From assembly GCA_031263025.1 (NCBI GenBank), contig JAISGO010000038.1, positions 3,038 through 67,037 of the forward strand: a stretch of DNA of 64,000 nucleotides, given 5' to 3'. The position numbers and the translations under genes were made by a program. Positions 33,872-62,672 of the stretch are shown here, one piece after another (positions within the stretch are counted from its first letter, which is position 1; each line of letters begins with the position of its first letter). The notes under the pieces were generated by a model, which ran no database searches, was not told where the DNA came from, and saw only the letters and a list, made by a program, of their open reading frames with translations. The DNA is from Coriobacteriales bacterium. Its GTDB lineage: Bacteria; Actinomycetota; Coriobacteriia; Coriobacteriales; UBA8131.

Positions 33872-33920
33872 GAAGCATATTTTATACTAGCATAGTATAA
33901 GCTAGTATAAAATATGCTTC
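33872..33920. repeat. perfect 20-bp inverted repeat spanning the 3' end of the left transposase gene
   Basis: GAAGCATATTTTATACTAGC (33872-33891) / GCTAGTATAAAATATGCTTC (33901-33920). Confidence 0.8.
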
Positions 33921-35053
33921 AACTCTTCTAAGAACTTCTCCTTAGCGCTTCGATAACCAAGAGACTTGCGCCATTTGTTGTTGACCTTTTCGGTAGCCCG
34001 CGCCACGCCTTCGGCCCCGTATTCTGCGATGTTGTGGCCCTTCCTTATCCCCGCCTGGCGCAGTAGTCCGTTGCAGTTCTCGTTCGACCCTCTCTCCCAA
34101 GAATGATAAGCATGCGCATAGTAACAGCGCGTCCGGCACATGTGGATAAAGCCGAGTAGCTCGTACACGGAGGTCTCAAAGTCGTCTGGCCTCGTGAACT
34201 CGGTTCCGTTATCCCAAGTGATGCTCTTGAATATCGCCTGGAATAGCTTACTTCCGATGGTAAGCTCTAAATCATCGAACCATGCGACGACATTCTCATG
34301 GTCTTTTGATTCCAGGTAGGCAGTCAGGTATATGCGGGTCTTGCGCTCAAGTAGGGTCAAGACGACCTCTTTCCTGCCGCCGCGCTTACCGACCACTAGA
34401 TCTCCCTCCCAATGACCGAACTCCTCTCGCGCTTCTACCTCGGCCGGCCGCTCGTCGATGGATTCGCCTCGGGTATACACCTGCTTGTAGGTGTACTTCT
34501 TATGCTTCGCCTTGCGCCTCATCTCGGCCATCGGCAATTTGTCTGCCGAGTAGCCGAGCTTACCATTGTTGGCGTAGTTGTAGATGGTCTTCGTGCAGAC
34601 CGTCTCCGGCAGCTTCCCTTCCATCCTGGCCCGGCCGCAAGCCTCATCAGGCGAGCGCCTGTTCTCGATTATCTCTTGCGCGTACCAAAGCATCGCCTTT
34701 CGGTGCTGCGGTCTTTCGAGTTTGAGCTTCGGTCCCTTTCTCGCCCAACGCGCTTCTGCTCTTCTTTGCGCCACGTCCTCATGATAATAAGGAACCTCCT
34801 CCAACGCTTCACCATCTGACCGGCGTACCCGCCGCACTTCGAGGATTGAACCGCGTTCTATCTCGCGATAGATGGTCTTGCGGCACCTACCTAAGATCTT
34901 GGCGATCCTTGCCACCGGAAGATGAAGCCGGTTCAGAAACAAGTCCAGCGCGTTACGTTCCTTGTCGTTGAAGTACTTACCTTTTCGCTTTCGAACGCCT
35001 TCTTCATCGAGTCCGTCAAGGTACTCCTCCGCAAGTCCGTATATCTTGGGCAA
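33902..35053 (-). CDS. IS30-family DDE transposase (left)
   Basis: HWEGDL, TWDNGTEF, WERGSNENCNGLLR catalytic motifs; N-terminal HTH; TTG start. Confidence 0.85.
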   Translation of the reverse strand: MPKIYGLAEEYLDGLDEEGVRKRKGKYFNDKERNALDLFLNRLHLPVARIAKILGRCRKTIYREIERGSILEVRRVRRSDGEALEEVPYYHEDVAQRRAEARWARKGPKLKLERPQHRKAMLWYAQEIIENRRSPDEACGRARMEGKLPETVCTKTIYNYANNGKLGYSADKLPMAEMRRKAKHKKYTYKQVYTRGESIDERPAEVEAREEFGHWEGDLVVGKRGGRKEVVLTLLERKTRIYLTAYLESKDHENVVAWFDDLELTIGSKLFQAIFKSITWDNGTEFTRPDDFETSVYELLGFIHMCRTRCYYAHAYHSWERGSNENCNGLLRQAGIRKGHNIAEYGAEGVARATEKVNNKWRKSLGYRSAKEKFLEELKHILY

Positions 35054-35173
35054 ATCAGTTCGTTCCTTTCAATGCATAGTATATGCTTTGCTATACTATG
35101 CGGCTATCCGTTTCTTCTATCAGTTTGTCGATAAGATTTTACCCCTGCGGCGCACACCTTTAGCGTTTTCCGC

Positions 35174-35208
35174 TTGACAATAGTATAGTATATGCTATAC
35201 TATACTAT
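35174..35208 (+). promoter_or_regulatory. parA(L) promoter TTGACA-16-TATACT overlapped by the palindrome ATAGTATAGTATA-TGC-TATACTATACTAT
   Basis: TTGACA 35174-35179; IR 35180-35192 / 35196-35208; related IR GCATAGTATA/TATACTATGC at 35074-35101. Confidence 0.6.
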
Positions 35209-35269
35209 GTTAGGCTACTATAGAATAGTCTTCAATGTACTATGCTATGCGTGAGAAAGAGAGGTATGT

Positions 35270-35818
35270 ATGAAAACCGTTTTGTTGGTGAACCAAAAGG
35301 GAGGAAGCGGCAAGACCACCATCGCTGATGAGTTGGTCTTCAACCTGGAGCGAAAAGGCCACAAGGTGACCTTCCAATCGCTTGACGCCCAAGGCGGTTC
35401 TATACACTATGGCAGTATGCCAGACGAGGACACCGAGTACCGCGTGATCGACTCGCCCGGCGCCATGCCGAAAGAGTTCAAGAACTGGTGTTCGGCGGCT
35501 GACATCATCATCATCCCGACCAAACCCGGGATTCCCGACCTTGCGCCTTTCAATCGTACCTACTCCGCCGCCCGGCAGGCCGCGCCGAAAGCGCACATCG
35601 GCATCGTCGTCAATTTCTACGACGCCAGGCGGGTGGTCGATCGCAACTTCGTGGAGGAGTTCGTTAAGCCGCTCATGTTAGACGTCTTTGCCTATATCCC
35701 TTCCACCACCCAGGTGGCCCGCGCCCAGGCTGAACAGATCTCCGTCTTTGACTATGACCGCAACTCGGAAGTGGCTAAGGCGTTTGACGCTCTCGCAGAC
35801 AAGGTGTTGTCTCTATAG
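35270..35818 (+). CDS. parA: ParA/Soj-type partition ATPase (left)
   Basis: deviant Walker A NQKGGSGKTT; ~45% identical to 60782..61333. Confidence 0.85.
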   Translation: MKTVLLVNQKGGSGKTTIADELVFNLERKGHKVTFQSLDAQGGSIHYGSMPDEDTEYRVIDSPGAMPKEFKNWCSAADIIIIPTKPGIPDLAPFNRTYSAARQAAPKAHIGIVVNFYDARRVVDRNFVEEFVKPLMLDVFAYIPSTTQVARAQAEQISVFDYDRNSEVAKAFDALADKVLSL

Positions 35819-35879
35819 CAAATACTATACTTTGCTATACTATGCTATTATATAATATGCTAAGAAAGGAATATGCTAA

Positions 35880-36224
35880 ATGAGTACAGACATTTTCGCA
35901 GAGTCGGCGCAAGCTGCTTTAGACGCACAAGACGAAGCGATGTACGCACCGGTCCCTATGGATAAGCCCGATACGAGCAAGCGCCCGAAACGTGCCTCCC
36001 ACAAGACCTCAAAGCCGACGACTTCCGCCAGGAAAGCGGACACCGCACCCGGCGAGTATCACGTCAAGCCTGCGAACGAGCGACGCGACTGTAAGGTGCT
36101 CGTTGGGTTCACTCCGTCCGAGCGCGAGCTACTCGAGCTCATTAAGACCGCCGAGGAACGTCCGCTCACACAGGTGATCGTCCGGGCGGTCAAGGAATAC
36201 TATAAGAACCACTACCAAGCCTAG
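35880..36224 (+). CDS. ribbon-helix-helix (CopG-like) protein
   Basis: C-terminal RRDCKVLVGFTPSERELLELIK..VIVRAVKEYYKNHY; ~50% identical to 60170..60385. Confidence 0.6.
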   Translation: MSTDIFAESAQAALDAQDEAMYAPVPMDKPDTSKRPKRASHKTSKPTTSARKADTAPGEYHVKPANERRDCKVLVGFTPSERELLELIKTAEERPLTQVIVRAVKEYYKNHYQA

Positions 36225-36240: not shown

Positions 36241-37644
36241 ATGAGACATAAGTCTCGCGAGAAGATAACCACCTATACCCTCATGAACAAGAACACCCCT
36301 GTTCTTGAGTTCGAGTATGCTCTTGCTTCCTCCACTATAACTGCTATCACCGCTCTGATTAACCCGGCGTATGCGCCTCTCGACGCATCACGCGCTTATA
36401 GCGATGGCGTGATAACCGAGGAATCCCTCAACGAGTGGTGGAGGAAGCGGGGCATCCCCTCTTCCCGTCAACATTTAGCAAACGCAGAAGACGTACTGCC
36501 GGCTTCGATGATGGAGCTACTTGAACACAACTATGGTCTATCGCTTTCCGATCAGTATTGGCTCAACGATTCGCGCTCGCCCAAGAGATGGGCCGAAGTG
36601 AACTTCTTCACCAATCCTTTTAGTGTCGACATCGGCCGTGCGCTTTTCGGCGGGGTGTCTTCGGAGGAGGCATTAAGCAACGACTTTTCCCTTATCTCAC
36701 CCGACGTTACCACCGGCGGGGTCTTACAAAAGAAGTGGATTATCGACGAAGGCCAACGCGTTCTCGTCAAAGGCGCCGAGGGCCAAGATCGCCAACAGGT
36801 CTTTAACGAGGTGATTGCCACCGAGCTGTATAGCAGATTGCTACCGCCAGATGAATACGTTACTTATAAGCTTATCAAAGAGGGCCATAAAGTCTATTGC
36901 GCATGCGGGGACATGATAGACATTGACGAAGAACTTGTAAGCGCAAAAGCGATTCGGCTGCATTTCGCCCGAGAGGAGAAAACGAGCGACTACGAACATC
37001 TCGTAAATTCTTACGAAAAGCTCGGCGTCAGCCATGCGGTTACAGCTACTGCCTTTTCCAAAATGCTTGTCTGCGACGCGCTTATGGCAAACGAGGATAG
37101 GCATACGGGTAACTTCGGCGTCATTAGGGACGTGAACAGTCTGGAGATCAAACGCATCGCCCCCCTTTGGGATACCGGTAACTCTCTCTTCTTCGACAAT
37201 GCCAGTCTTCTTTTGACACCTGGCTACGAATGGGAGTTCCGTTCAAAACCGTTTGCGGCGCGTATGAAGACCCAACTGGAATATGTGGACGATTATTCTT
37301 GGTATGACCCCAAATCCCTCAAAGGGTTCAGAGATTACGTGGCAGAGAAACTTTCGGAGATCGCACTTTATAAATCGTCTGGCCTAGACGTAGCGATTGC
37401 CGCTAGTGTCGATTGCCGCCGCGACTATATAGACAAGCAAGCTCGCGAATGGCAACTGAATCACAGCCGGAATCATATGTACAACGAAGCCCAAATCGCT
37501 AAACCCAGCGACGGGAAAAATCAAGTTCAACCGAACCTCGGTCCGCACCACATGGAGGACCTTGTTGCCCAAACGACAAGGGTTTCCGAAGCCCGCGAAG
37601 AGACGCGCGGAGGGCATGGCGGGCACGAAGAACCTAAACGCTAG
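36241..37644 (+). CDS. HipA-like Ser/Thr kinase toxin homolog with portable C-terminal tail
   Basis: HipA_C catalytic loop MANEDRHTGNFGVI; RBS GGAGGGG; tail NLGPHHMEDLVAQTTRVSEA. Confidence 0.7.
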   Translation: MRHKSREKITTYTLMNKNTPVLEFEYALASSTITAITALINPAYAPLDASRAYSDGVITEESLNEWWRKRGIPSSRQHLANAEDVLPASMMELLEHNYGLSLSDQYWLNDSRSPKRWAEVNFFTNPFSVDIGRALFGGVSSEEALSNDFSLISPDVTTGGVLQKKWIIDEGQRVLVKGAEGQDRQQVFNEVIATELYSRLLPPDEYVTYKLIKEGHKVYCACGDMIDIDEELVSAKAIRLHFAREEKTSDYEHLVNSYEKLGVSHAVTATAFSKMLVCDALMANEDRHTGNFGVIRDVNSLEIKRIAPLWDTGNSLFFDNASLLLTPGYEWEFRSKPFAARMKTQLEYVDDYSWYDPKSLKGFRDYVAEKLSEIALYKSSGLDVAIAASVDCRRDYIDKQAREWQLNHSRNHMYNEAQIAKPSDGKNQVQPNLGPHHMEDLVAQTTRVSEAREETRGGHGGHEEPKR

Positions 37645-37656
37645 AAGGAAACGGTG

Positions 37657-38460
37657 ATGACGACCCAAGACCTCATAAACGCGCTACTGGAGCAACGCAG
37701 GTTGCAGATAAACGGTAACGTCTACTGGCAGACCCAGATCGACCTGGCCTATAACTCGAATAGGATCGAGGGTTCCCAACTCACCCACGAACAGACCCGC
37801 TACATCTTCGAGACACAGACGATCTCCGGCGAAAACGTTCCCGTAGACGACGTGGTGGAGATGAAGAATCACTTCCGCATGTTCTATTACATGCTGGACC
37901 ATTTCAAGGAACCCGTGAGCGTCGAGACCATCCAAAGCTATCAGGCAATCCTCAAGGCCGGCACCTTTATGTCGGAGGACCCGAAGATGAACGTGGGGGG
38001 ATGGAAGCTCATCCCGAACGCGGTCGGCAACACCACTACGTCGCTACCGGGACAAGTCGATAACGACGTGAGGGCGCTCCTCGCCGCCTATAACAGGCAC
38101 GTCGAATCCGGCCACGAGGTGACGCTCACGCAGATCGCCGCCTTCCATGCACAGTTCGAGGCGATCCACCCCTTCCTCGACGGCAACGGGCGTACCGGTC
38201 GCATCATCATGTTCCACCAATGTCTCCAGGCGGGACTTATCCCGCCCATCGTCATGGACAAGACCAAGGCGGCCTACTACGCCGGCCTCGACCGCTGGCA
38301 GAACCATAACGACAGCAAACCGCTTCTGGACTATCTCGAAGAATGTCAGGCTGATTATCGCTCAGAATGCGAGTTCCTCCTTGAGGGCAAAGGCAAAGAT
38401 TTGAGTGGCCGCAAACCAGCCGATGTTGGCTACGAGGACATCTTCAAGGCGGACGAATAA
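37657..38460 (+). CDS. Fic-domain AMPylase, class II (N-terminal inhibitory motif)
   Basis: HPFLDGNGRTGR canonical Fic motif; SNRIEG matches (S/T)xxxE(G/N); starts 9-12 nt after the HipA-like stop. Confidence 0.85.
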   Translation: MTTQDLINALLEQRRLQINGNVYWQTQIDLAYNSNRIEGSQLTHEQTRYIFETQTISGENVPVDDVVEMKNHFRMFYYMLDHFKEPVSVETIQSYQAILKAGTFMSEDPKMNVGGWKLIPNAVGNTTTSLPGQVDNDVRALLAAYNRHVESGHEVTLTQIAAFHAQFEAIHPFLDGNGRTGRIIMFHQCLQAGLIPPIVMDKTKAAYYAGLDRWQNHNDSKPLLDYLEECQADYRSECEFLLEGKGKDLSGRKPADVGYEDIFKADE

Positions 38461-38477
38461 GCTTTAGAAACTCCTTG

Positions 38478-38497
38478 ACGCCGCCTGCGGGCGGCGT
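38478..38497 (+). terminator. rho-independent terminator candidate after fic
   Basis: ACGCCGCC-TGCG-GGCGGCGT followed by TTCCTTT. Confidence 0.6.
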
Positions 38498-38537
38498 TTC
38501 CTTTGGCGGCTTTAGCCGCCTCATGACGTTCTTTCCA

Positions 38538-38590
38538 TTACCGTCTCAAGGTTGTATAATCACATTTAACGGTAACGCTGAATAGCCCGT
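38538..38590 (+). other. oriT candidate (left module): 7-bp IR with 24-nt loop followed by GGTAACGC
   Basis: TTACCGT (38538-38544) / ACGGTAA (38569-38575) then CGCTGAATAGCCC; same layout as the right module; upstream of mobC. Confidence 0.4.
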
Positions 38591-38810
38591 TGGTGACAAA
38601 TTAACTCCGCTAATTTTCTCCAACGGCATTCACTCCGAGTCCTGCCAGACTCGGAGAGGCAAACCGCCCGAGGCTTCGCCACCCGGTCGGTTTCGCACAA
38701 AAGACGCAGACTTTGTGCGGGCGTGTCGGCCTGAGCCGCCAACGTCAGGGGGAGACCCCTGAGACCCCTGGTAATGGAGTCCGCAACGACCGAAAGGAGT
38801 TGCGGACATA

Positions 38811-39242
38811 ATGGCAAGACCTCACTTGAAAGATAACGGCAGAAGCCGGAGGGTTCACTTCGCTGTCACTCCAAAGGAGTATTCGAAGATAAAGGTTCAG
38901 GCTAAAAGTCTGAACCTTACCATCTCCGCCTATATTCGTCAGCGTGCCCTCTCAGATGTTACTGTCTTTTACGCCGGTGACGACGAAGGTCTCGCTAAGA
39001 TCCGTTCACAGCTACTCCGCGCTTTCGCAAGGAACAATCAAGCGGTAAAGGCAATCAACTACATTAGTAACGGTCTTCGCGAAAACTACTTTCCAGATTC
39101 GATTAGGGAAGACCTCAAGAATTTCGCAAACGAGAACGCTCCTTATTTCTCCGATACCGCGAATCAAATCAGCGATTGCCTTGCCGGTATTTCTGACTTC
39201 TATCATTCATTCAACAAGCTTCTTAAAGAAGGGAGAATCTAA
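38811..39242 (+). CDS. mobC: MobC-type relaxosome accessory protein (left)
   Basis: RRVHFAVTPKEYSKIK..ISAYIRQRAL RHH; TAATG overlap with next gene. Confidence 0.65.
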   Translation: MARPHLKDNGRSRRVHFAVTPKEYSKIKVQAKSLNLTISAYIRQRALSDVTVFYAGDDEGLAKIRSQLLRAFARNNQAVKAINYISNGLRENYFPDSIREDLKNFANENAPYFSDTANQISDCLAGISDFYHSFNKLLKEGRI

Positions 39243-39742
39243 TGCTAGACATTTGCGCTAAAAGGGATACGCCTTACGTGTATCCAAGCCTGCGTAGTCT
39301 CATTTCCGAGGACTGTCGTTTCAGTCTCTTCAAGGCGGATAGTCTGCTTAAAGGAGACATAATCGGCGAGTATCATGCTAAACTTTGCGGTCTATTCTGG
39401 GGGAGGCAACCTCGTAGCGGTCGAGCTACGCCTCTAGTCGCCTGTCTCTTCCTTATCTATACGGCAGACGAAAATAACAAAATCGTTGAACTTGAAAATA
39501 AGTTCATTACCGCTTCCGCTTGGGATAATAACCTTCATAAACCTCTTTTCGACTCGCCTTCGGCACCGCCACCAGACGACACTCTAGCTTATTCTGATTG
39601 GCTCGCTTCATTGCATATTGACGAATCCGCAGAACCGCAAAAATATCTTGCACTTAGGAGCATCCCCATCGGTAGTTATATCACTTGCACATTCGCCCTC
39701 AACCGTAACGGGCATGGGGTACTTCGCGACTGGATCGTCTGA
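39242..39742 (+). CDS. hypothetical protein (left module only)
   Basis: translationally coupled on both sides (TAATG, TGATG); no counterpart between mobC and relaxase on the right. Confidence 0.5.
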   Translation: MLDICAKRDTPYVYPSLRSLISEDCRFSLFKADSLLKGDIIGEYHAKLCGLFWGRQPRSGRATPLVACLFLIYTADENNKIVELENKFITASAWDNNLHKPLFDSPSAPPPDDTLAYSDWLASLHIDESAEPQKYLALRSIPIGSYITCTFALNRNGHGVLRDWIV

Positions 39743-41244
39743 TGCCTGAACTCCGTCTTCAAGCCGCACACCGTAAATGCTTTGGCGTTGCTGAGTATCT
39801 ACGTTACGGGAAAGGCGAAAGCTACTTTACGAACAAACGTGAAGGAAAGACTCGTGTTCGCGCCTTCGGTGGTTTTAACCTTGCCGGCGACATCTTCGAC
39901 TGGGATCAGCAGATGGACGAAACTCGAGAGATGGCCGGAAACGACCTCCCGTATCGTGGGCGCCGGGCACGGACTTACAATCACTTCGTCCTCTCGCCCG
40001 ATCCTGCGGACGGGCTTTCCTATGAAGATGTCCTAGCCCTCGCGGAAGAATACGCCGCGCACTTCTTCGGCGACGGTGAAGTCCGTGGTACCATTGGCCA
40101 GTTTGAGAGCGCCATTATCATACATGACGACGGAACGAACAATGTGGTACATGCGCATGTGATTGTGAACAATACCGATCTCGATACCCTCAAGCGTATT
40201 CATCGTGACCGCAGAGACATCAAGGAAATGTATGACTTCGCGGAAGAGCTTGCGAAATCGCATGGGTATCATTCTTTTACGGAGACACATGAGTCTGTTC
40301 CTGCTAAGGTCGGCGAGTTCGAGATGGGAACAAGGATATTCTCCAAGCCTAGACCGATTAGTTTTGCCGAGCGTCACGCGATGGAAGCGCATGAAGGCTA
40401 CTCCTGGAAGGAGGATCTCGCCCAGCGTGTCCGGGTCGCCTATGAATGCGCGAGCGACATGAAGGGTTTCGTCCTTGCCTGCAAGGACCTCGGGGTGACG
40501 GTGGAGAAGTCGAAGGCGAAAAACTACGCCGGCGACTTCCTCTACCGTATGGCCGACGAGCCCACGCATTGCTGTCGTGCCAACAAGCTCGGCACAGACT
40601 ACCGCTCCGGCAACCTCACCCGCCACTTCGCCCGAAACGAGAAGCGTGGCCTCTGGAAGCCACGCGATGGCCAGGCGGCCGAAGTCGCGAAGGTGTTCTG
40701 GCCGAAGGGTATCCGCCGGGTCGGCAACATCGAGAAGGGAAGCGGTATCAGCCTCCACGAGGCCTTCCAGGTGATTGACTTCATGCGCGAAGTGCATGTG
40801 AGCGACTACACGCAGATAAAGCGGATTAGACCCTCTTCCGAGGACATGCGCGAGCGTCTGGAACGTTTCGCCTACGTCGCCGAACACGCCCACCTCAAGG
40901 TCAGGGACACCACGAAACCGGCCGCGAAGCCGCAGGCAAAGCAAAGCGCACCTATCGTCGAGGACGGCAAGATCGTCGGCACGGCGGACGCGAAGACCAA
41001 GGCGCTGTTCGCCACCGTGAACAAACAAGCGGCCGCAAGAAAGAAACAGATTGCAGCTATGACACCATCGGAGCGTGCTGCCGCAGCAGTCGCAGCACAA
41101 CGAAACGCACAACGAAGCCGGCCACAGCAAGCACAGCGCCGCGCCGCGCCTCAGCCACAACGTCCCGCGCCGCGACCCCAAGCGAGACCGCAACCGCAGC
41201 CACAGCGCAGCCGTCCGCCTACCCGCCACTCTCCGCAACGCTAA
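39742..41244 (+). CDS. MOBQ/MobA-VirD2-type relaxase (left)
   Basis: IHDDGTNNVVHAHVIVNNTD (HxDx..HxH), N-terminal Tyr region AEYLRYGKG; Pro/Gln/Arg-rich tail. Confidence 0.8.
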   Translation: MPELRLQAAHRKCFGVAEYLRYGKGESYFTNKREGKTRVRAFGGFNLAGDIFDWDQQMDETREMAGNDLPYRGRRARTYNHFVLSPDPADGLSYEDVLALAEEYAAHFFGDGEVRGTIGQFESAIIIHDDGTNNVVHAHVIVNNTDLDTLKRIHRDRRDIKEMYDFAEELAKSHGYHSFTETHESVPAKVGEFEMGTRIFSKPRPISFAERHAMEAHEGYSWKEDLAQRVRVAYECASDMKGFVLACKDLGVTVEKSKAKNYAGDFLYRMADEPTHCCRANKLGTDYRSGNLTRHFARNEKRGLWKPRDGQAAEVAKVFWPKGIRRVGNIEKGSGISLHEAFQVIDFMREVHVSDYTQIKRIRPSSEDMRERLERFAYVAEHAHLKVRDTTKPAAKPQAKQSAPIVEDGKIVGTADAKTKALFATVNKQAAARKKQIAAMTPSERAAAAVAAQRNAQRSRPQQAQRRAAPQPQRPAPRPQARPQPQPQRSRPPTRHSPQR

Positions 41245-54993: not shown

Positions 54994-55038
54994 AGTAGCC
55001 TCCTTAAAGCTTTATAGATTTTATATAAGAAAGTACGG

Positions 55039-55660: not shown

Positions 55661-55715
55661 TTCAGGCTCCTTTCCTTTGGGGTCTTCCTGGCCCCGTTGT
55701 CAATGCCGATGTGAA

Positions 55716-55835
55716 GCCACGGCGCAAGTGGTTGCGTCAAGGGGACAAGGCCTCGCTTTAAGGAGCTGAGGCGATGGCCAGCCATCGTCCAGCGGTAATC
55801 GAGGTCGGCCCTTGCGCGGCCGCTCGCGCCGTGGC
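55716..55835 (-). other. 120-nt long-stem hairpin (right-module counterpart of 42208-42339), followed toward 56025 by a polypyrimidine (minus-strand) tract
   Basis: GCCACGGCGC (55716-55725) / GCGCCGTGGC (55826-55835); minus-strand loop ATTACCGCTGGACG..CCTCAGCTCCTTAAAG. Confidence 0.65.
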
Positions 55836-56025
55836 AAAACGTGAGGCTTGACAGCGGAGGCAGGAAAAGAGGGAAAGGTCTAAAAGATTGCAGGCGAACA
55901 AGATTATCGGTTCATGCAGCGGGTGTAAGAGGTTTGAAGCTGGGCGGGGAAAAGGGAGAGAGAGAGATTTGAAACCTCCCTCCCAACAGGGCAAAGTGAA
56001 GACAATGGTAATGCGTTCAGGTGGC

Positions 56026-56742
56026 TTAAAGCTGACTCTCCAGGAAGGAAGTCACGCCATCCTCGTCGGTGGAGGTCTCATCTACTGGGGCTTCAGGAGA
56101 AAGATCATCGGGGGACTTGGCCAAGATGTAGTTCTCAGGAAGGACGGGCCCGTCCTCGGCATCTGCTTCTTCCGTTGCGAGGTTTGCCTCTTCGTCGGCT
56201 AAGGCTTTCTGCAGGGCTTTCGGAGTGTAGCCGAGCTTGTCGGCGATCTCCTCGTCGCTTATGCCAAGATTGGCTTGTTGTAGATAGCGGAAGAGCTCCG
56301 CCACTTTCGCGTTGTAGGAGGCGACTGCCGGGCTCGAGTAACAGAGAAGCTCCTGGGCCTTGAATTTATTGGCGTTGATAAGCTCTCCACCTTGTTTCCA
56401 CAAGACGAGTTCGTCGTCTACGGTTACTTGTGTGATGTAGTCAACCTCGTCTTTACCGACAAGTGCGGTACGGCAGCAGAGCAGGTTGTTCGAGTAGGGG
56501 ATTTTGGTAAAGCGTCCTGGGGTGTGCTCCACTTCCGCATAATGGGGAGACTCACCTCCGCTACCGCCAGGGGCGTCGTGGAAGTAGACGTCGAGGCAAA
56601 GCCCGGTCTCGTGAATGGTGTCGAGGGTTAGCTGAAACTCAGTCACAACGTTCTGCTCGCCCTTGATCGGGTCTTTAGTCGTATAACAGTCTGTGTCGAA
56701 GATATTGACACGACCGTTCTCGAAATAGACATTGACTTTCAT
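56026..56742 (-). CDS. conserved hypothetical protein (paralog of 41271..42014)
   Basis: same position after the relaxase; SDEEIADKLGYTPKALQKALADE. Confidence 0.6.
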   Translation of the reverse strand: MKVNVYFENGRVNIFDTDCYTTKDPIKGEQNVVTEFQLTLDTIHETGLCLDVYFHDAPGGSGGESPHYAEVEHTPGRFTKIPYSNNLLCCRTALVGKDEVDYITQVTVDDELVLWKQGGELINANKFKAQELLCYSSPAVASYNAKVAELFRYLQQANLGISDEEIADKLGYTPKALQKALADEEANLATEEADAEDGPVLPENYILAKSPDDLSPEAPVDETSTDEDGVTSFLESQL

Positions 56743-56763
56743 GGTCGTTCCTTTCTCTTTGGA

Positions 56764-58185
56764 TTAACGGGCACCTCGAGAAGGCGAGCTGCGGCCTCTC
56801 GATTGCGGACTATGTTGCTGCGGCCGAGAACCGGAGGAGCTGTGGTGCCTTCCACTACCGCTTCCAAACATCTCGCGTTCCCTGTCCCGAGCCGTGCCTT
56901 TCTCATATTTGCCGACCCCTCTAGCCTTATTGCGGGCTGCAATGTCCCGAGCCTGTTCTCCAAGAGGCGATAACGGACGCTGGCTAACAGAGCGCGCCGG
57001 TAGCATCTTCGCTTCACTCGCGACTTTCTGGATGTTGGCAAGTTCGGCTTTCGCCGCCGGGTTCCGCACTTCGAGCTTGTCGAAGCCGGCAAGCGAGCAG
57101 ATACCGAAAGTGTTTATGAAGGATAGTGCTCGGGAGATGTCTTTAAGGCTGTAATTCGCACCAGGAGCGACTGTCGCGACCTTTCTTGCACCTCTAGGCC
57201 AAAGTTGTCCCGCGATGGCCGCAGCGGCGCTCTCAGGGCTCTTCTGACGCTTTATCTGGGCGTCGCGAGAGAAGTATCGTTTGATATTGCCCGAGCGAAA
57301 GTCATTGCCGAGTTTCCAGGCGCCGACCTGGCGGCTCGGCTGGTCGGTCAAGCGATAGATGAAGTCTCCCGCGTGTGCTTTCGAGGTTGAATAGTCGAGG
57401 CTTATGCCCATCACGTTCAAGGAGCGGACGTAGCCGGACATATCCTTGGCCGTCTCGTAGGCGATCCGTACCCGGTCAGCGATGTCCGACTTCCAGGAGT
57501 AGGTTCCGGTGCCTTCTGCACGTATCTCCGCGAAGCTGCGGTTACGCGGTGTCGTGAAGGCTTCCCGCTCGGGCTCCGGCACCTGGTAGTGTTCATCTCT
57601 TTCCTCCTCGGTACGTGAGAGCGTGCTCGCATAATCGTTGTTGAAATAGTGCAAGTGATGTGCGCGGGCGAGGTCGTTTAGGCTATGCCGGAGACTGCGG
57701 TTCGAGGCGTCGGAGATCTGTAGCCTCTTGCCGTTTGTGAGGTCTGTGTTGTTCACGATAACGTGGGCGTGGGCAACACCGTGGCTGCCGTCGTCATGGA
57801 CTATCACCACCCATTCGTAAAGCCCGAGGCTACCAGTATGTCCATCTGAGCCGAACCAAACCCGGCAATACTCATTCGCAAGCTCCAGCACATCATGGGT
57901 AGACAGCTTGTCGGCGGGATCAGGCGAGAGCAGGAGATGATTCGCCCTTACGCACTTACGTCCCCGCCATCCGGTATCGTTTCCGGCGGCCTTGCGGCTT
58001 GCGTCCATCTCTTTGTCCCAGCTGTCAAGGGGGTTGAGTGAGACCATGTTCTCCGCGTGAAAGGCACGGACGCGGTTACGGCCGAGGGCGAGGTTCTTGC
58101 GGTAGGCTTCCCCTTTGCCGAAGAGCAGGTAGTTGCGCACTCCAACGATAGAGCGATGCACCCTTCTTGCCCCGAACTTCGGCAT
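56764..58185 (-). CDS. MOBQ/MobA-VirD2-type relaxase (right)
   Basis: VHDDGSHGVAHAHVIVNNTD; N-terminal VRNYLLFGKGEAY. Confidence 0.8.
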   Translation of the reverse strand: MPKFGARRVHRSIVGVRNYLLFGKGEAYRKNLALGRNRVRAFHAENMVSLNPLDSWDKEMDASRKAAGNDTGWRGRKCVRANHLLLSPDPADKLSTHDVLELANEYCRVWFGSDGHTGSLGLYEWVVIVHDDGSHGVAHAHVIVNNTDLTNGKRLQISDASNRSLRHSLNDLARAHHLHYFNNDYASTLSRTEEERDEHYQVPEPEREAFTTPRNRSFAEIRAEGTGTYSWKSDIADRVRIAYETAKDMSGYVRSLNVMGISLDYSTSKAHAGDFIYRLTDQPSRQVGAWKLGNDFRSGNIKRYFSRDAQIKRQKSPESAAAAIAGQLWPRGARKVATVAPGANYSLKDISRALSFINTFGICSLAGFDKLEVRNPAAKAELANIQKVASEAKMLPARSVSQRPLSPLGEQARDIAARNKARGVGKYEKGTARDREREMFGSGSGRHHSSSGSRPQQHSPQSRGRSSPSRGAR

Positions 58186-58187
58186 GG

Positions 58188-58628
58188 CTAAAATCCTGCC
58201 TTCCGAAGCTTCGCGTCAACCGCGAACTGGAGAGCGACGACCCTCTGTTTCGCTTCCTTGATCTCTTGTTGGGTGGCGATGATCAGAGGCTTGGTGTCGC
58301 TTACGAAGTGGGCGAGGTCTTCGCTGATGGTTTCTACGGAGAAGCCCTCTTCGAGTCCGTAGGCGATCCGGTTGAGTGCTTTGATCCCTTGGGAGTTACG
58401 ATTGCCGGCAAGGGTGATGGCGTTTGACAGCTCCCTCATCGCCGCGATTAGCTGTCCCGATCCGAGTGGGTAATAATCGCCAGCGACATCGAGCGCGGAG
58501 GAACGCAGGAACTCGGAAAGAGACACGCCAGAAGCCGCTGCCGCAGCCTTTATCGCCTGGCGCTCAGCGACCGTCAAGCGAACAGCGAGGGGTGCCGTCT
58601 TAGGGGTGACTGTCTTGGGTCTCGCCAT
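58188..58628 (-). CDS. mobC: MobC-type relaxosome accessory protein (right)
   Basis: MARPKTV..LAVRLTVAERQAIK..LSEFLRSSAL; start set to ATG 58628 (both MobC copies start MARP). Confidence 0.65.
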   Translation of the reverse strand: MARPKTVTPKTAPLAVRLTVAERQAIKAAAAASGVSLSEFLRSSALDVAGDYYPLGSGQLIAAMRELSNAITLAGNRNSQGIKALNRIAYGLEEGFSVETISEDLAHFVSDTKPLIIATQQEIKEAKQRVVALQFAVDAKLRKAGF

Positions 58629-58920
58629 ATGTCTTGAAGCGACCTTTCCGTATCGTTTGCTACAAACGAACGGTCGGTCGCCAACTGGCGAGAGCTGGGC
58701 CGAATGTCTTTTGAGGGGTGTGGGGTCTCCCCCACGAAGCGCTAGGCGCTTTCCTCGGGGCGGCAAACCCGGCAGGGTTTTCAAAGCCCCCACGGCAGGA
58801 CTGCCGTGGAACCGGTCAGGGTTGCGTAGGCCCTCTCCGGTTCGCCTCCCGAGCTTTAAGCTCGAGCCAGTGGTATAAGCCGAGACGAAAACGCAGTTTT
58901 CGTATTCGGTTTATACGGTG

Positions 58921-58969
58921 CTGGGCGCGTTACCGCATAAGGGATTTTAACATAGAAATAGCGGTAACG
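58921..58969 (-). other. oriT candidate (right module): 9-bp IR + GCGGTAACGCGCCCAG
   Basis: CGTTACCGC (58928-58936) / GCGGTAACG (58961-58969). On the minus strand the IR is followed by TAACGCGCCCAG, which resembles the RSF1010/R1162 nick region GGTAAGTGCGCCCT (from memory). Confidence 0.5.
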
Positions 58970-58981
58970 TTGGTCAAGAGA

Positions 58982-59011
58982 AGAAAAAATAAACCGCCCA
59001 AAGGGGCGGTT
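58982..59011 (-). terminator. rho-independent terminator after abiEii
   Basis: minus strand AACCGCCC-CTTT-GGGCGGTT followed by TATTTTTTCTT. Confidence 0.7.
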
Positions 59012-59023
59012 CTAAGATGCTTT

Positions 59024-59779
59024 TTATATCTCTGGTGGGTCTTGAATCGGTGGGTCTACAAAGAACCCGTCGTCATCGCGGTCAGGTTGATAGTGCGCTA
59101 CGATTCTGACTTCATCTGCTCTGGCGCTAAGGCGCGAGGGCTGCATTAAGCCGACCTTATCGTAGGCGGAAAGAAAGCGTGTCTCGAGAAGGGAATTGTC
59201 GATTAGTGGGTCGTCCTGGGTTCTCACTAGATAGTCGAACTCGTTTAGGCCCTTGTATTCAAAGGCGTTGCGGACGACCTCAACAGAGGCCTTCTCGAGG
59301 TCATCAAAATACTTTGCACAAATGAACGTCAGGTCGTAGAGGTCGCGGATACGGTCGCGGTGCAGATAGGCCGAGGCCTTCATCTTGCAAAGCTCGTCAA
59401 TAGAGTAGACGAGTATCCCGTTTATGGTTCTCGTATCGGTATCAAAGTCAATATCGCGGCGGCGATAGGAAAGCTCGACTTTAAGGGGGGTCGAAGGATC
59501 GCCATAGTTGATGAGTGCGCGCTTGACAGTATTGGTGTCCTTTCCGATGCGGTAATCATAGCTACTCTTCTCGCAGAATGTTGAAACAATCTTAAAAAGG
59601 GCGTCAGAGGACTTTTCATATCTCTCCCCCTCTCCGTCCAGGTCTATGTCAACGGAGTTGCGGTCGAGATCGTAGCAGAACATCAAAGCCGTGCCGCCCT
59701 TCAAAACGAAGCGGCTTGGATCGGCGTTGATGGCCGCGACAAGTTCCCTCATCACCGAAACATGTTTATCGAAGTCCAT
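59024..59779 (-). CDS. AbiEii/DUF1814-type nucleotidyltransferase toxin
   Basis: FVLKGGTALMFCY..RNSVDIDLD motifs. Confidence 0.75.
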   Translation of the reverse strand: MDFDKHVSVMRELVAAINADPSRFVLKGGTALMFCYDLDRNSVDIDLDGEGERYEKSSDALFKIVSTFCEKSSYDYRIGKDTNTVKRALINYGDPSTPLKVELSYRRRDIDFDTDTRTINGILVYSIDELCKMKASAYLHRDRIRDLYDLTFICAKYFDDLEKASVEVVRNAFEYKGLNEFDYLVRTQDDPLIDNSLLETRFLSAYDKVGLMQPSRLSARADEVRIVAHYQPDRDDDGFFVDPPIQDPPEI

Positions 59780-60167
59780 GATTCCCCTTGAAGTCTAGCC
59801 AAGTGCAGCCATATTCCTTGCCGACGGCACGGTCTATCTTGTCCCAGTTCGGCGACTGCCTGAGCGAAGTGAGCTTGTCGAAGAAAAGCGGCGTGTACCT
59901 CTCATTGCCGATGAAGTATTCACGGGTACCCTGGAAGGAGGAATAATAGCCCTCCTGTAAGAGGTCGATCGCGGCGCGGACGTGGTTGGCGACGGGAAGT
60001 CCGCAGGGGTTGTCGATTCCGTAGTTGATTCCCCATTTGCCGAGCGGAGACTCCGTGGTGTCGAAGACGTTAGGCTTGTCCCAATGCAGGGCTGGATAAT
60101 GCCAGTCTTGGAAGGTGTCCAAGGTATCCGGCAGGTTGAAGGCGAATGTCCCGGTGAGGTACTTCAT
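59766..60167 (-). CDS. hypothetical 133-aa protein overlapping abiEii by 14 nt (not AbiEi-like)
   Basis: coupled to abiEii; no recognisable wHTH; Trp/Tyr/Gly-rich. Confidence 0.5.
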   Translation of the reverse strand: MKYLTGTFAFNLPDTLDTFQDWHYPALHWDKPNVFDTTESPLGKWGINYGIDNPCGLPVANHVRAAIDLLQEGYYSSFQGTREYFIGNERYTPLFFDKLTSLRQSPNWDKIDRAVGKEYGCTWLDFKGNHGLR

Positions 60168-60169: not shown

Positions 60170-60385
60170 CTAATCGGCTATATCCTGCTCATGATGATTT
60201 TGATAATACTCACGAAGCGAACGCACGATGATACGCGTCATGGGTCTATCTTCCTCCGCACTTAGGGTGTCAAGCATATCGCGTTCCTCCGGAGTGAATC
60301 CCATCGTGATCTTCGAGTCACGCCGCTCGCTCGCAGGCTTCTTGCGATGATCGCGGGGTTTGTCCTGGCTTGCAACTTGCGACAT
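60170..60385 (-). CDS. ribbon-helix-helix protein (homolog of 35880..36224)
   Basis: RRDSKITMGFTPEERDMLDTL..IIVRSLREYYQNHH. Confidence 0.6.
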   Translation of the reverse strand: MSQVASQDKPRDHRKKPASERRDSKITMGFTPEERDMLDTLSAEEDRPMTRIIVRSLREYYQNHHEQDIAD

Positions 60386-60525
60386 TACCGGCCTTTCAGT
60401 TAATAGCTTCTATTCAATCATAGTCTATCATAGAATAGTAGCTAATTTTATAGCAAGCTATAAAAGATATGTTTATTGCAAAGATATAAAAGCAATAATT
60501 ATATAAATATAGCTAAGGAGTCTTA

Positions 60526-60789
60526 CTAATCTTTCCTTATCAGGTCAGCGATGATTAGGTCGCGGACATAAGCCGAGAAAGAAGAATGGAGTTTCGCTGC
60601 CTTTGCCTTCGCCTGCCATTTGAGCTTATCAGGCATCCTTAGAATGACCGAGACATTCTCCTCTTTCGTGCCGTCCGGGGGCAGGGGCAGGCGTACCCGA
60701 CTCCCTTCCACTTTCTGATACTTGCGTTTCTGCTCTGTGGCGGCTTTCGTGAATATCTCAGCAGATTTCTTCTCAGCCATTTCAACCAA
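60526..60789 (-). CDS. ParG-like RHH partition protein
   Basis: overlaps the parA(R) stop by 8 nt; VSVILRMPDKLKWQAKAKAAKLHSSFSAYVRDLI. Confidence 0.55.
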   Translation of the reverse strand: MVEMAEKKSAEIFTKAATEQKRKYQKVEGSRVRLPLPPDGTKEENVSVILRMPDKLKWQAKAKAAKLHSSFSAYVRDLIIADLIRKD

Positions 60790-61333
60790 CCTCCTTGATT
60801 ATCCTGTCGCAAAGCTCCTCGAAAGCAGCTGCGGCCTTATTCTTCTTGTTGAACTCATATATTGACATCTGAGCGGCCTGTGCCTGGACGATAGCTGTCG
60901 TGGTAGGAATAGTCGTCCATACCGGCATCTCGCAGTTAGCGAGGTAACGGAGGAAGTCGCTATCAGCGAGGCGCCGTTTATCGTAGAAGTTCACGGCTAT
61001 GCCAAGGTGGGCTTTAGTCTTGGACTTCACTGCCTTGTCCCAGCAGCGCATAAGCGGAATCTGGTCTAAGGTGGACGCCCGTGTCGGCATCACGATGAGA
61101 TCAGCCGCGCGGCACCACTCAGCAAAGTCTTTGTGGAGTGTAGGCGGAGTATCTACGATCAAAAAATCATCGTCGTCTTTGGGGAGGGTTGGCGCATGTA
61201 GGACGCCACCTTGCGGGTCGAGGTTTTGGAAGCTCACCTTGTAGCCCCGGCGTTCCAGGGCAAACGCGATCTCATCAGAGACTGTGGTTTTCCCTACCCC
61301 ACCTTTTTGATTGGCTACAAGAACCGTCTTCAT
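60782..61333 (-). CDS. parA: ParA/Soj-type partition ATPase (right)
   Basis: NQKGGVGKTT deviant Walker A. Confidence 0.85.
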   Translation of the reverse strand: MKTVLVANQKGGVGKTTVSDEIAFALERRGYKVSFQNLDPQGGVLHAPTLPKDDDDFLIVDTPPTLHKDFAEWCRAADLIVMPTRASTLDQIPLMRCWDKAVKSKTKAHLGIAVNFYDKRRLADSDFLRYLANCEMPVWTTIPTTTAIVQAQAAQMSIYEFNKKNKAAAAFEELCDRIIKEVG

Positions 61334-61526
61334 GTCCGCTCCTCACGTGCAGATATGTATAAAAGAATAATTATATCATTTATAGAATTATAAAGAAGAT
61401 ATACATGAGTGTCAAACATGCAGGAAAAGACAAAATAATTTCAAAAATTATATAATTGCAATAAATATAGAATTATTACAATTATATAAAGCTAATAAAA
61501 TCCACTACGAACAGAGGAGGCGAACA

Positions 61527-62672
61527 TTGGCCGGACTTACCATAGAACTTGAGCAATATCTTGACGAAGGAAGCTGCAATCGTCCAGGTAAATACCTTAA
61601 CGCGCTCGACCGGCATTTCATAGACATAGCCCTAAATGAATTGAAAATGCCGGTTTCCAAAATCGCGAAGACCTTGGAACGCAGCCGACGGACAATCCAG
61701 AGGGAGATTAGGAGAGGTTCCACTTGGGAAGCGGCCGAAAAAAATACTTATGCTATTGGCAGAAAAAGTAAACAAGATAGGGTGCTGAAGTACCACTGGG
61801 AGGCAGCGGAACGCCTTTTTCGTAAAAGGCAGAAAAATAAAGGATATGGTCTGAAACTAGCCGACGAGAAGTACATGGACGCTGCCGTTTGGTATCACAA
61901 GATGATAGTCGTTGAAGGCCGGTCGCCTGATGAAGTGTGCGGTCGGGCCCGAATTGAAGGGAAGTTGTCGGCGTATGTGTGTTTTAAGACGCTTTACAAC
62001 TACTCGCATAACGGCGTACTTGGGTACAGCGATAAGAACCTGCCGATGGCAGAAATCGAGCGGAAAGCTCAAAAGAAAAGATATACCTATAAGCAGAAGT
62101 ATGTCCGAGGGGAGTCGATTGAGTTCAGGTCGGATGCGGTAAACAAAAGACAGGAGTTCGGGCACTGGGAAGGTGATTTGATTGTAGGTAAGCGTGGCGG
62201 GAAGAAGGAGGTAATCTTAACCTTGGTCGAAAGGAAGACCCGCTATCTTATCGCGGTAGTCCTCGCTTCAAAGGAACATGAGAATGTAGCCGCGTGGTTT
62301 GATCAAGTGGAGCTTATCATCGGGGAAGAGCGCTTCGCCAATATTTTCCGCTCTGTCACCTGGGACAATGGATCGGAGTTCGCCCGTCCGATTGACTTTG
62401 AGACGTCGATATTCGAGCTCCTCGGCATAAGCGGTTCATATCGCACTAGATGTTTCTATGCTCATGCCTACACGTCCTGGGAAAGAGGCTCTAACGAGAA
62501 CTGCAATGGTCTTATTCGCAGGAACGGCATTAAGAAAGGCCATGACATAGAAGAATATGGACAAGAAGTTGTAAGACAGGTTGCTGAGAAGATTAACAAC
62601 AAATGGCGCAAGATCCTAGGGTATCATTCAGCAAAGGAGTATTTCGCAAGAGAAATGAAACTTATAGAATGA
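61527..62672 (+). CDS. IS30-family DDE transposase (right)
   Basis: HWEGDL, TWDNGSEF, WERGSNENCNGLIR; TTG start after AGAGGAGG; ~60% identical to the left copy. Confidence 0.85.
   Translation: MAGLTIELEQYLDEGSCNRPGKYLNALDRHFIDIALNELKMPVSKIAKTLERSRRTIQREIRRGSTWEAAEKNTYAIGRKSKQDRVLKYHWEAAERLFRKRQKNKGYGLKLADEKYMDAAVWYHKMIVVEGRSPDEVCGRARIEGKLSAYVCFKTLYNYSHNGVLGYSDKNLPMAEIERKAQKKRYTYKQKYVRGESIEFRSDAVNKRQEFGHWEGDLIVGKRGGKKEVILTLVERKTRYLIAVVLASKEHENVAAWFDQVELIIGEERFANIFRSVTWDNGSEFARPIDFETSIFELLGISGSYRTRCFYAHAYTSWERGSNENCNGLIRRNGIKKGHDIEEYGQEVVRQVAEKINNKWRKILGYHSAKEYFAREMKLIE

Follow-up and report, generated by a model that had tools for sequence, protein, structure and literature searches.

A probable composite of two diverged IS30-clade integrative mobilizable elements, joined tail to tail, in a Coriobacteriales chromosome

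The 64,000-nt stretch of Coriobacteriales DNA analysed here (contig JAISGO010000038.1; hereafter the window) carries, between positions 33659 and 62945, a 29.3-kb element that is probably a composite of two diverged integrative mobilizable elements (IMEs), each encoding a DDE transposase of one clade of the IS30 family of insertion sequences (IS), and both arranged tail to tail around a cargo of adhesin and pilus genes. The window is chromosomal, since its flank holds, between 6 and 17 kb, the genes for obg, priA, a ClpX-type AAA+ ATPase and a class I aminoacyl-tRNA synthetase of the Glu/Gln type. Its G+C content is about 0.59-0.63 in most of the flanking chromosome and 0.40-0.55 over 31-64 kb, the lowest values being those of the two transposase regions, and no tRNA genes were found in it. 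An initial annotation had already proposed a DDE-transposase IME, with two relatives fused in an inverted composite, and this proposal is now supported by the ends of the element, a split target gene, the synteny of the transposase gene (tnp) with parA, and single-module relatives at other loci. The span of 33902-62672 given at that time has to be enlarged to the ends named above.

The element consists of two mirror-image modules of about 9 kb each around a non-mirrored adhesin/pilus block of 12.4 kb (42.85-55.25 kb). Each arm comprises an IS30-family transposase, a small ParA, a gene for a ribbon-helix-helix (RHH)-like protein, a toxin/defence pair, a gap resembling an origin of transfer (oriT), a NikA/MobC gene, a PF03432 relaxase, a conserved open reading frame (ORF), a hairpin of about 200 nt and a YraN-like gene, with the right arm mirroring the left one from 62672 down to 55250. 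Gene calls drawn from the ORF list and from Pfam, NCBIfam and PADLOC profiles recovered all the genes listed before, in the same order and orientation. The seven gene pairs said to be shared between the arms are likewise all paired by BLASTP, collinear in mirror order and with E values of 1e-11 to 1e-150, which is more than chance would give; their identities are 57 % for the transposase, 49 % for the RHH-like protein, 43 % for ParA, 38 % for the YraN-like protein, 37 % for the relaxase, 36 % for the conserved ORF and 28 % for MobC. The arms are more diverged, at 28-57 %, than the 45-60 % first estimated, and the backbone ORFs are all intact in both of them.

Local alignment of the DNA beyond the two transposase stop codons gave one inverted match, a pair of imperfect 24-nt terminal inverted repeats (IRs) formed by 33664-33687 (ATTGTAAAACGAACTGTCACATCC) and the reverse complement of 62922-62945, with 19/24 matches overall and 14/16 in the outer part. 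The 16-nt IR core occurs within the window only at 33664 and 62945, in inverted orientation. The IR tips lie 238 nt (left) and 273 nt (right) past the tnp stops, in good agreement with the earlier statement that the transposases face outward 240-270 bp from the ends. A 9-bp direct repeat, ATTCTTGAG, is found at 33650-33658 and 62946-62954, with no third copy in the 64 kb; its right copy abuts the right IR, and its left copy lies 5 nt outside the left IR. The features at the two borders are the following:

33608-33658, + strand: 5' fragment of a DUF2971 gene (MKLYHYTSADAALNILE), whose last 9 nt are the left copy of the duplication
33659-33687, + strand: left terminus, the 5 nt CACGG followed by the IR ATTGTAAAACGAACTGTCACATCC at 33664-33687 (local alignment)
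62922-62945, - strand: right terminal IR, ATTGTAAAAGAAACTGGCGCAGCC on the - strand (local alignment, 16-mer search)
62946-63920, + strand: 3' part of the DUF2971 gene, whose first 9 nt (62946-62954) are the right copy of the duplication (Pfam DUF2971, PADLOC PDC-S31)

When the element and one copy of ATTCTTGAG are removed, joining 33608-33658 to 62955-63920, an in-frame ORF of 338 aa results. The N-terminus of this rejoined protein aligns without gaps with the two detectable homologues, P0122 and P0123, and keeps a spacing identical to theirs (MKLYHYT, 14 residues, W). The right copy of ATTCTTGAG is in frame with the annotated DUF2971 protein, and the left one terminates the short ORF MKLYHYTSADAALNILE. 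Because the outer repeats bracket the ends and the two halves of DUF2971 rejoin in frame and gap-free, all 29.3 kb must have entered an intact DUF2971 gene as one unit, in a single transposition event using both outer ends. The duplication could be just 4 bp long, provided that the right tip is 5 nt longer and coincides there with the target by chance; the reconstructed target is identical under a 9-bp or a 4-bp duplication. Misassembly is an unlikely cause of the structure, since arms as diverged as these would hardly be mistaken for each other and the structure lies between the two halves of one gene, even though the 93 % repeats described below could affect the gene order inside the centre.

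If the region were instead an immobile relic, that is, an integrated plasmid or a decayed conjugative element whose borders derive from unrelated events, the IRs and the direct repeat would be coincidental. Such a relic would suit the plasmid-like par locus, the resemblance of the adhesin and sortase genes to those of elements with a type IV secretion system (T4SS), and the lack of any direct sign of activity. However, a gene split in frame with an exact 9-bp repeat present nowhere else in the window, IRs at symmetric distances from two intact transposases, intact backbone ORFs in both arms, and the absence of a Rep and of any PLSDB match to the module DNA or the relaxase make this explanation very improbable.

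The target itself belongs to an islet of low G+C (about 0.40-0.42), made up of an Mrr-type type IV restriction gene (32160-33605) and the DUF2971 gene (33608.../62946-63920), which matches the PADLOC candidate family PDC-S31. The insertion broke this candidate defence gene while bringing in AbiE and Fic/HipA-like systems.

The two enzymes that would act on these ends are the following:

33902-35053, - strand: left IS30-family DDE transposase, 383 aa, outward (NCBIfam transpos_IS30, 207 bits; HTH_38, rve)
61527-62672, + strand: right IS30-family DDE transposase, 381 aa, outward (NCBIfam, 195 bits; HTH_38, rve)

The cut-off of the NCBIfam model for IS30 transposases (NF033563) is 80 bits. HTH_38 is above its cut-off in both proteins, and rve is found at 24.7 and 30.1, under the Pfam gathering score of 32.6. 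In an 11-sequence alignment, the acidic residues of the motifs HWEGD, DNG(T/S)EF and ERGSNE, which by their position we take to be the DDE triad, are invariant. Both proteins are, as judged from their sequences, IS30-family transposases with an intact triad. Each gene is single-copy in a database of 5.8e9 proteins, and the two are each other's best match (57 %), the next best being at 46 %. The best plasmid matches of the transposase by tblastn are all annotated as IS30 family and share at most 36 % identity, and a PDB sequence search with the transposase and the relaxase gave nothing significant.

AT-rich inverted repeats bracket both transposase genes, on the left at 33890-33917/35074-35101 (28 nt, 75 %) and on the right at 61449-61489/62712-62752 (41 nt, 71 %). 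The initial annotation had considered that each transposase might turn out to have its own close pair of IRs and represent an ordinary IS of 1.2-1.5 kb. This candidate is rejected. The close repeats recur as iterons at other promoters of their own arm and are not flanked by a duplication; the insertion used ends that are separated by 29.3 kb, each beyond its transposase gene by 238 nt (left) or 273 nt (right), and the duplication there measures 9 bp (4 bp as a minimum). Moreover, both genes are single-copy and syntenic with parA. An IS of the IS30 type is defined by a length of 1.0-1.7 kb, close terminal IRs and a duplication of 2-3 bp, and the element does not fit this definition.

The IS-like spacing of these bracketing repeats would also agree with an ordinary compound transposon, in which two IS30-family ISs flank integrated plasmid-like DNA and the par and mob genes are passengers, as in the case of ISApl1 and mcr-1 in Tn6330; movement by the two tnp-proximal ends is likewise what a compound transposon would be expected to show. 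Against it stand the nature of the repeats, which are iterons of other promoters of the same arm and lack a flanking duplication, and the position of the used ends, 238/273 nt outside. Moreover, both transposase genes are single-copy, whereas typical IS30 relatives are found on contigs of 1.2-2 kb, and the arms are not near-identical IS copies but 9-kb multi-gene modules with transposases 57 % identical. The synteny of tnp and parA, kept in 8/9 homologues at 39-46 %, is not something that chance IS insertion would give, so that we consider the compound transposon quite unlikely.

This synteny is the strongest link between the transposases and the rest of the modules. Eight of the nine nearest transposase homologues (39-46 %) sit divergently beside parA (L001/L002, L003, L118, L119, L120, L030, L027-29 and L031). 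Since the divergent arrangement is kept in these loci, the transposase belongs to the module rather than to a stray IS, and it is stably linked to the par (and mob) genes across relatives. In L001/L002, tnp is accompanied by ParA (65 % to the right arm), a ParG-like gene and a HipA-like gene (43 % to the left arm); L001 combines traits of the two arms. L003, L118, L119, L120 and L030 have tnp beside ParA. L027-29 and L031 (the latter from SRR29713741) are single-module loci with tnp, ParA, a small ORF, cargo, NikA-MobC and a PF03432 relaxase, in which tnp faces outward and abuts chromosomal genes. L027 and L028 (SRR26940865, SRR27226256) are identical over 9,817 nt and diverge 230 nt past the tnp stop, the first into a short-chain dehydrogenase gene and the second into an ABC-permease gene. 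Therefore, the same single-module element occupies two chromosomal sites, and its end-to-tnp distance (230 nt) is the same as in the window. The L028 contig is not circular, its flank being the ABC-permease gene. In the ninth homologue, L004 (38 %), tnp closes a T4SS element next to whiA. The context-linked transposases form one clade in a neighbour-joining tree (no bootstrap), apart from many relatives of about 354 aa on contigs of 1.2-2 kb, as is usual for multi-copy IS. In several relatives, a comparable terminal motif, CAGTT..TTTTACAAT, can be seen some 230-290 nt past tnp.

At the far side of L027 (66-1211), there is an AcrVA2-like gene (anti-CRISPR family PF26125). A 55 % homologue of this gene is present elsewhere (L115-L117) and is followed by an Rrf2 regulator, as in L031.

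Single-module versions, whose search had been suggested from the start, were thus found with their one transposase and its end (L027-29, L031), but their distal end was never reached. This leaves room for a natively two-armed family, in which a transposase/par/mob set at each end would be the normal form and not the product of a secondary fusion. That no distal end of a single-module relative appears within 9.8-10.9 kb of the tnp end, local alignments of the tnp-proximal ends of L027 and L031 against the rest of each locus having given nothing, that no inner ends are seen within the window and that both arms are fully intact would all follow from it. Nevertheless, the arms are only 28-57 % identical and L001 mixes both, which speaks for separate lineages; the centre has no mirror symmetry and carries recent duplications at 93 %; and L027 and L031 show no sign of a second arm. 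We therefore hold a natively two-armed family to be unlikely and favour the composite of two elements.

Several observations count against this composite reading, too, and have to be set beside the evidence in its favour. Regarding the ends, the left one has 5 nt (CACGG) that are missing from the right one, and the duplication of IS30 itself is 2 bp long and not 9 bp (PMC9333248). There was no sign of an excised circle, an empty site or a second copy, and searches of the window with the 16-mer (3 mismatches) and the 9-mer (1 mismatch) gave no remnant of inner ends above chance. As for the relatives, the distal end of the single-module loci was not found within 9.8-10.9 kb of the tnp end, and a search through the outermost L027 gene gave no contig extending further, since the contigs start inside the elements. 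Because this end was never reached, it is from the architecture that we infer a fusion of two complete elements. In a scan of JGI metagenomes with the 11-sequence transposase alignment, the relatives among the matches listed, which did not include the known loci L001 and L003, share at most 40 % identity and have no par/mob neighbours, so that the linkage of tnp with par/mob is confined to a narrow clade. A genome scan with the relaxase alignment gave 22 loci in Atopobiaceae and relatives, none of them with an IS30-like gene within 10 kb. In addition, the support for the RHH fold, the oriT and the binding to iterons is weak or indirect, and the element represents one instance, in one contig of a metagenome-assembled genome.

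What we call here an IME is an integrated element with its own integration enzyme, ends and insertion signature, together with a relaxase and/or an oriT and without mating-pore genes. The element has two intact DDE transposases, IRs, a duplication and a split gene, and both arms encode a relaxase and a NikA-like protein and have a putative oriT. The one indirect hint at excision and at mobilisation by a helper is the presence of a single-module relative at two chromosomal sites. The mobilisation genes and their neighbours are the following:

38461-38810, + strand: left oriT-like intergenic region with several short hairpins
38811-39242, + strand: left NikA-like MobC, 143 aa (PF21983, 2.8e-11)
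39242-39742, + strand: left orf166
39742-41244, + strand: left MobA/VirD2-type relaxase, 500 aa (PF03432, 8.4e-17)
41271-42014, + strand: left conserved ORF, 247 aa (36 % to the right copy)
42181-42366, + strand: left long conserved hairpin with 50-nt arms (minimum free energy -128.5 kcal/mol, z -9.5)
42398-42817, + strand: left UPF0102/YraN-like protein, 139 aa (weak Pfam and NCBIfam matches; 38 % to the right copy)
55250-55660, - strand: right UPF0102/YraN-like protein, 136 aa (PF02021, 2.5e-11, passes Pfam)
55685-55866, - strand: right long conserved hairpin (minimum free energy -110.7 kcal/mol, z -6.6)
56026-58628, - strand: right conserved ORF (238 aa), relaxase (473 aa) and NikA-like MobC
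58629-59023, - strand: right oriT-like intergenic region

The likely start of the right MobC is M56 of a 201-aa ORF, at 58628. The gaps labelled oriT-like in the initial annotation are indeed intergenic and rich in hairpins, and nothing beyond these hairpins marks them as an oriT. Mating-pore or T4SS genes, VirB4, the type IV coupling protein and TrbL were absent among the ORFs scanned, and Pfam found neither a Rep nor a tyrosine or serine recombinase in the major ORFs, just as had been noted before. The DNA of both arms has no megablast match in PLSDB, and the left relaxase has no tblastn match in plasmids (PLSDB) or phages. An origin as a free plasmid or a phage is thus not supported, and the overlooked Rep of a free plasmid, which would have refuted the first reading, did not appear.

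The conserved ORF also adjoins related relaxases in Atopobiaceae loci, where relaxase and conserved-ORF pairs are found in genomes at 30-38 % identity. One such pair lies in a T4SS element of Tractidigestivibacter scatoligenes SK9K4, which also encodes TrbL, an NlpC/P60 hydrolase, a TQ/SpaA LPXTG adhesin and a UPF0102 protein. T4SS elements of this kind are the likely evolutionary source of the mob module and also its likely helpers. An AlphaFold2 model of the conserved ORF from a 2-sequence alignment was unusable (pLDDT 45.7).

The long hairpin sits between the conserved ORF and the YraN-like gene in both arms, with a conserved apex (TTACCGCTGGACG, CGCCTCAGCTCC) and compensated stems. No Rfam match was found over 30-64 kb at E<=0.1, the hairpin included; its core motifs, searched as exact strings, are absent from all the relative loci, and sliding-window folding gave no equivalent downstream of the conserved ORF in 16 relaxase loci. 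The hairpin could be a single-strand DNA element (a priming site or a single-strand promoter) or an RNA. In L006, L012 and L017, the 220-nt fold with the highest stability coincides with the 5' edge of the relaxase gene, some 2.2 kb before the end of the conserved ORF, and may represent the oriT of those Atopobiaceae loci.

Type Ib partition systems combine a small ParA with an RHH centromere-binding protein, examples being ParF/ParG of TP228 and delta/omega of pSM19035. The loci of the two arms resemble them in their small ParA, here with an RHH-like candidate partner, and in the arm-specific iterated repeats lying over several promoters, as omega sites do. The partition genes, the repeats and the promoter-like sites are the following:

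33754-33781, - strand: outward promoter-like site TTGACA-16-TATACT, about 95 nt inside the left end (11/12 matches, putative)
33871-33921, unstranded: near-perfect palindrome with 24-nt arms and the left-type repeat motif, over the tnp stop codon (repeat and motif search)
35071-35250, unstranded: divergent tnp/parA control region with left-type iterons CATAGTATA / TATACTATG over a TTGACA-16-TATACT promoter-like site
35270-35818, + strand: left small ParA ATPase, 182 aa (Pfam CbiA, AAA_31, ParA)
35815-35862, unstranded: second left-type iteron cluster, between parA and the RHH-like gene
35880-36224, + strand: left RHH-like small protein, 114 aa (49 % to the right partner; fold from sequence pattern)
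60170-60789, - strand: RHH-like protein (71 aa), right-type iterons (60443-60508) and ParG-like protein (87 aa) (weak RHH_9)
60782-61333, - strand: right small ParA ATPase, 183 aa (Pfam)
61358-61496, unstranded: control region between the divergent parA and tnp, holding right-type iterons AATTATATA and promoter-like sites in both directions (12/12 matches for the - strand promoter)
62690-62769, unstranded: right-type iterons and palindromes just past the tnp stop
62828-62856, + strand: outward promoter-like site TTGACA-17-TAAAGT, about 89 nt inside the right end (mirrors the left site, putative)

The CbiA, AAA_31 and ParA matches begin at residue 1 in both the 182- and the 183-aa protein. Over their full length, the left and right ParA share 37 % and 41 %, respectively, with the 183-aa ParA of pCaero1, a 23-kb plasmid of Collinsella aerofaciens that represents their nearest plasmid homologue and in which ParA is followed by a CopG-family RHH gene, with neither a relaxase nor an IS30-like gene; the right ParA is 65 % identical to that of L001. 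Contrary to type Ib loci, those of the window lie on a transposase-bounded integrated element and not on a Rep replicon, and their iterons also bracket tnp. The genes labelled RHH and ParG-like by the initial annotation do exist, but their profile scores are weak: RHH_9 with an E of 0.1 in the window and RHH_10 with 3.7e-4 for the L001 homologue of the ParG-like protein. The left 114-aa protein has no significant Pfam match.

The left-type motif (CATAGTATA/TATACTATG) also clusters at 47124-47165, at the promoter of a cargo operon, and the right-type motif (AATTATATA) between the ParG-like and RHH-like genes and upstream of the gene for a 421-aa surface protein. Compared with shuffled sequences, both motifs are enriched 5-6-fold (24 left-type iterons vs 4.1 expected; 19 right-type vs 4.0). 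They occupy mirror-equivalent intergenic positions, overlap near-consensus promoters and lack flanking duplications, and seem to behave like arm-specific operator/centromere repeats.

A small hairpin precedes each of the two outward promoter-like sites, and the right one could drive a truncated DUF2971 ORF starting at 62964. Outside the element, 3.1 kb away and just past a DUF2130 gene, a perfect palindrome (GTGTATATACTATAGTATATACAC, 30508-30531) holds the left-type iteron core, maybe by coincidence or as the operator of another related element.

IS30 moves by a copy-out/paste-in mechanism through circles and can join the ends of two distant copies; it targets inverted repeats, and its IR-IR junctions are unstable (PMC9333248). 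By analogy, one or both transposases would act on the ATTGTAAAA... outer ends and join them into a 29-kb circle, whose junction would read ...CAGTTTCTTTTACAAT + 0-9 nt + (CACGG)ATTGTAAAACGAACTG..., and an empty target site would read GCTTTAAATATTCTTGAGAAACAAGAAATGTGG. Either relaxase would then nick its own oriT, and the strand would be exported by the T4SS of a co-resident conjugative element, after which the circle would re-insert with low site specificity. ParA and its RHH-like partners, together with the HipA/Fic and AbiE pairs, would keep the element stable in its excised or integrated form, and the RHH-like proteins would repress the iteron promoters, both those of parA/tnp and those of the adhesin operons. 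The composite may have originated by the insertion of one element at or beside the distal end of another, followed by the loss of the inner ends and the inversion or duplication of the centre, a fusion history that is speculative. It is conceivable, albeit improbable, that the two-armed form is a working design, namely a double-ended mobilizable transposon whose two ends each depend on a cognate transposase, while the separate oriT/relaxase sets allow export by two different helper systems, and the RHH/iteron circuits tie transposase expression to the partition state of the circle. The two ends are alike only in their terminal 16 nt.

Besides this machinery, the element carries toxin, defence and surface-protein genes, arranged as follows:

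36241-37644, + strand: left HipA_C-like kinase, 467 aa (Pfam; PADLOC PDC-M03A, 2e-14)
37654-38460, + strand: left Fic protein, 268 aa (Pfam; PADLOC PDC-S04/SoFic, 3e-86)
42877-43146, + strand: direct repeat D2 copy a, with a 35-aa ORF at 42958-43065 (93 % to copy b)
43943-46979, - strand: operon of a 159-aa ORF, a 582-aa fn3/MBG surface protein and a second Fic (left-type iteron promoter at 47124-47165)
47241-53305: pilus/adhesin block, with a 384-aa ORF and a 1022-aa SpaA-domain LPXTG protein on the - strand and a 401-aa ORF and a sortase on the + strand (SpaA 5e-35, Gram_pos_anchor, Sortase)
53460-53729, + strand: direct repeat D2 copy b, with the same 35-aa ORF at 53541-53648
53728-54993, - strand: 421-aa MBG-domain surface protein, paralogue of the 582-aa protein (right-type iterons at its promoter, 55033-55095)
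59024-60167, - strand: right AbiEii (251 aa) and AbiEi (133 aa) (Pfam AbiEii 9.5e-23; PADLOC AbiEii 5e-62, AbiEi 1.7e-39)

In the right arm, the pair first described as an orf plus abiEii keeps its AbiEii, and the orf can now be named AbiEi (PADLOC, 1.7e-39); the two adjacent genes, which overlap by 14 nt, make up an AbiE abortive-infection (type IV toxin-antitoxin) system. The Fic and HipA-like proteins of the left arm match candidate defence families of PADLOC.

Two pairs of direct repeats are present in the centre, one of 270 nt (93 %) and the other of about 245 nt (91 %), and its left-type adhesin operon has the opposite orientation when compared with the right-arm layout. The longer repeats, D2, flank a pilus/adhesin block of 10.6 kb, which recombination between them would delete. 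Both D2 copies encode an identical 35-aa peptide, hydrophobic and then basic (MDVLQLITAAIRLLLVVAKLPKAFRRLRQERKKRP), the nucleotide differences within the ORF being silent, and the ends of the transcript can pair over about 25 nt (GAGTTAGCGTTTCGCCGGGTGCGCC ... GGCGCACCCGGCG..CGCTAACTC); D2 looks like a cassette in the style of type I toxin-antitoxin systems. The shorter repeats (43133-43379 and 43833-44077) bracket a 140-aa ORF downstream of the second Fic gene, and part of them is an inverted match of about 72 % to the 3' end of the left HipA-like gene (37530-37582), which suggests that the HipA/Fic cargo has recombined with the central block. Outside the element, at 17310-20926 on the - strand, a 687-aa protein combines a KAP-family P-loop NTPase with a methyltransferase domain and has as its neighbour a circularly permuted ATP-grasp-like protein (513 aa), maybe another defence locus and unrelated to the element.

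Among the known systems, the closest in function is ICE6013, an integrative and conjugative element (ICE) of Staphylococcus aureus, for which Smyth and Robinson in 2009 reportedly found low-specificity insertion, terminal inverted repeats and a short duplication. As in the window, an IS30-family transposase replaces the integrase there on a conjugation-borne element (PMC3942029, PMC7563843), and a 38 % relative of the window transposases (L004) also ends a T4SS element. However, the window element has no T4SS or coupling protein and is mobilizable rather than conjugative, its relaxase is of the MobA/VirD2 type (PF03432) whereas that of ICE6013 is a MobT of the Rep_trans type (PF02486; PMC7563843), its duplication is of 9 bp instead of 3 bp, and it has a ParA/RHH locus, two arms, two transposases and a Coriobacteriales host. 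Set against the published descriptions, ICE6013 is the nearest functional analogue, and the window element is not a member of that family. The likeness first drawn to ICE6013 and TnGBS stands as a functional one; the TnGBS transposase belongs to a different family (PMC3942029).

DDE-type IMEs represent a recognised category, even though MTnSag1 and tISCpe8 were the only ones in a 2017 review (PMC5704250), and a 2023 survey found DDE enzymes to be rare in IMEs and ICEs (PMC10484663). Those two are likewise mobilizable and bounded by IRs, with a short target duplication (8 bp) and a circular intermediate (PMC5704250). Contrary to the arms of the window, of about 9 kb each and with their own MobC, relaxase and IS30-family enzyme, they measure 1.7-2 kb, belong to the IS1595 family, lack a relaxase and par genes, and have an accidental oriT in a resistance gene. 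Tn6330 (ISApl1-mcr-1-ISApl1) shares with the element two cooperating IS30-family arms whose outer ends move the intervening DNA (PMC9333248, PMC6349718), but its arms are copies of a simple IS, whereas those of the window are 9-kb modules, 28-57 % identical and inverted, with tnp facing outward, ends about 250 nt beyond tnp, and a duplication of 9 bp instead of 2 bp. Finally, accretions of ICEs and IMEs also bring two related conjugation-dependent elements into one island that acts as a unit (ICEscreen, PMC9585547; PMC5704250). The known ones are arranged head to tail and use site-specific recombinases at att sites, whereas the arms of the window are tail to tail and DDE-based, with their inner ends lost and a single shared target duplication. 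What is new is thus a family of relaxase-encoding, par-equipped IMEs of an IS30 clade, here as a two-armed composite with direct evidence of its transposition as a unit.

Integrated elements that depend on conjugation are thought to use tyrosine or serine recombinases almost always, and the DDE class is scarcely documented. In at least nine loci from Coriobacteriales and metagenomes, an IS30-clade transposase is tied to a plasmid-type partition locus, and in three of them (this window, L027-29 and L031), the full MobC/relaxase set is also linked. Two diverged members of such a family can apparently merge and then transpose as one 29-kb unit, together with adhesin, sortase and defence genes. 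Detection tools centred on recombinases probably under-count this kind of movement and combination of large cargo in gut Actinomycetota. With its defined ends, target site and regulatory repeats, the element offers a testable model for the coordination of transposition, partition and mobilisation.

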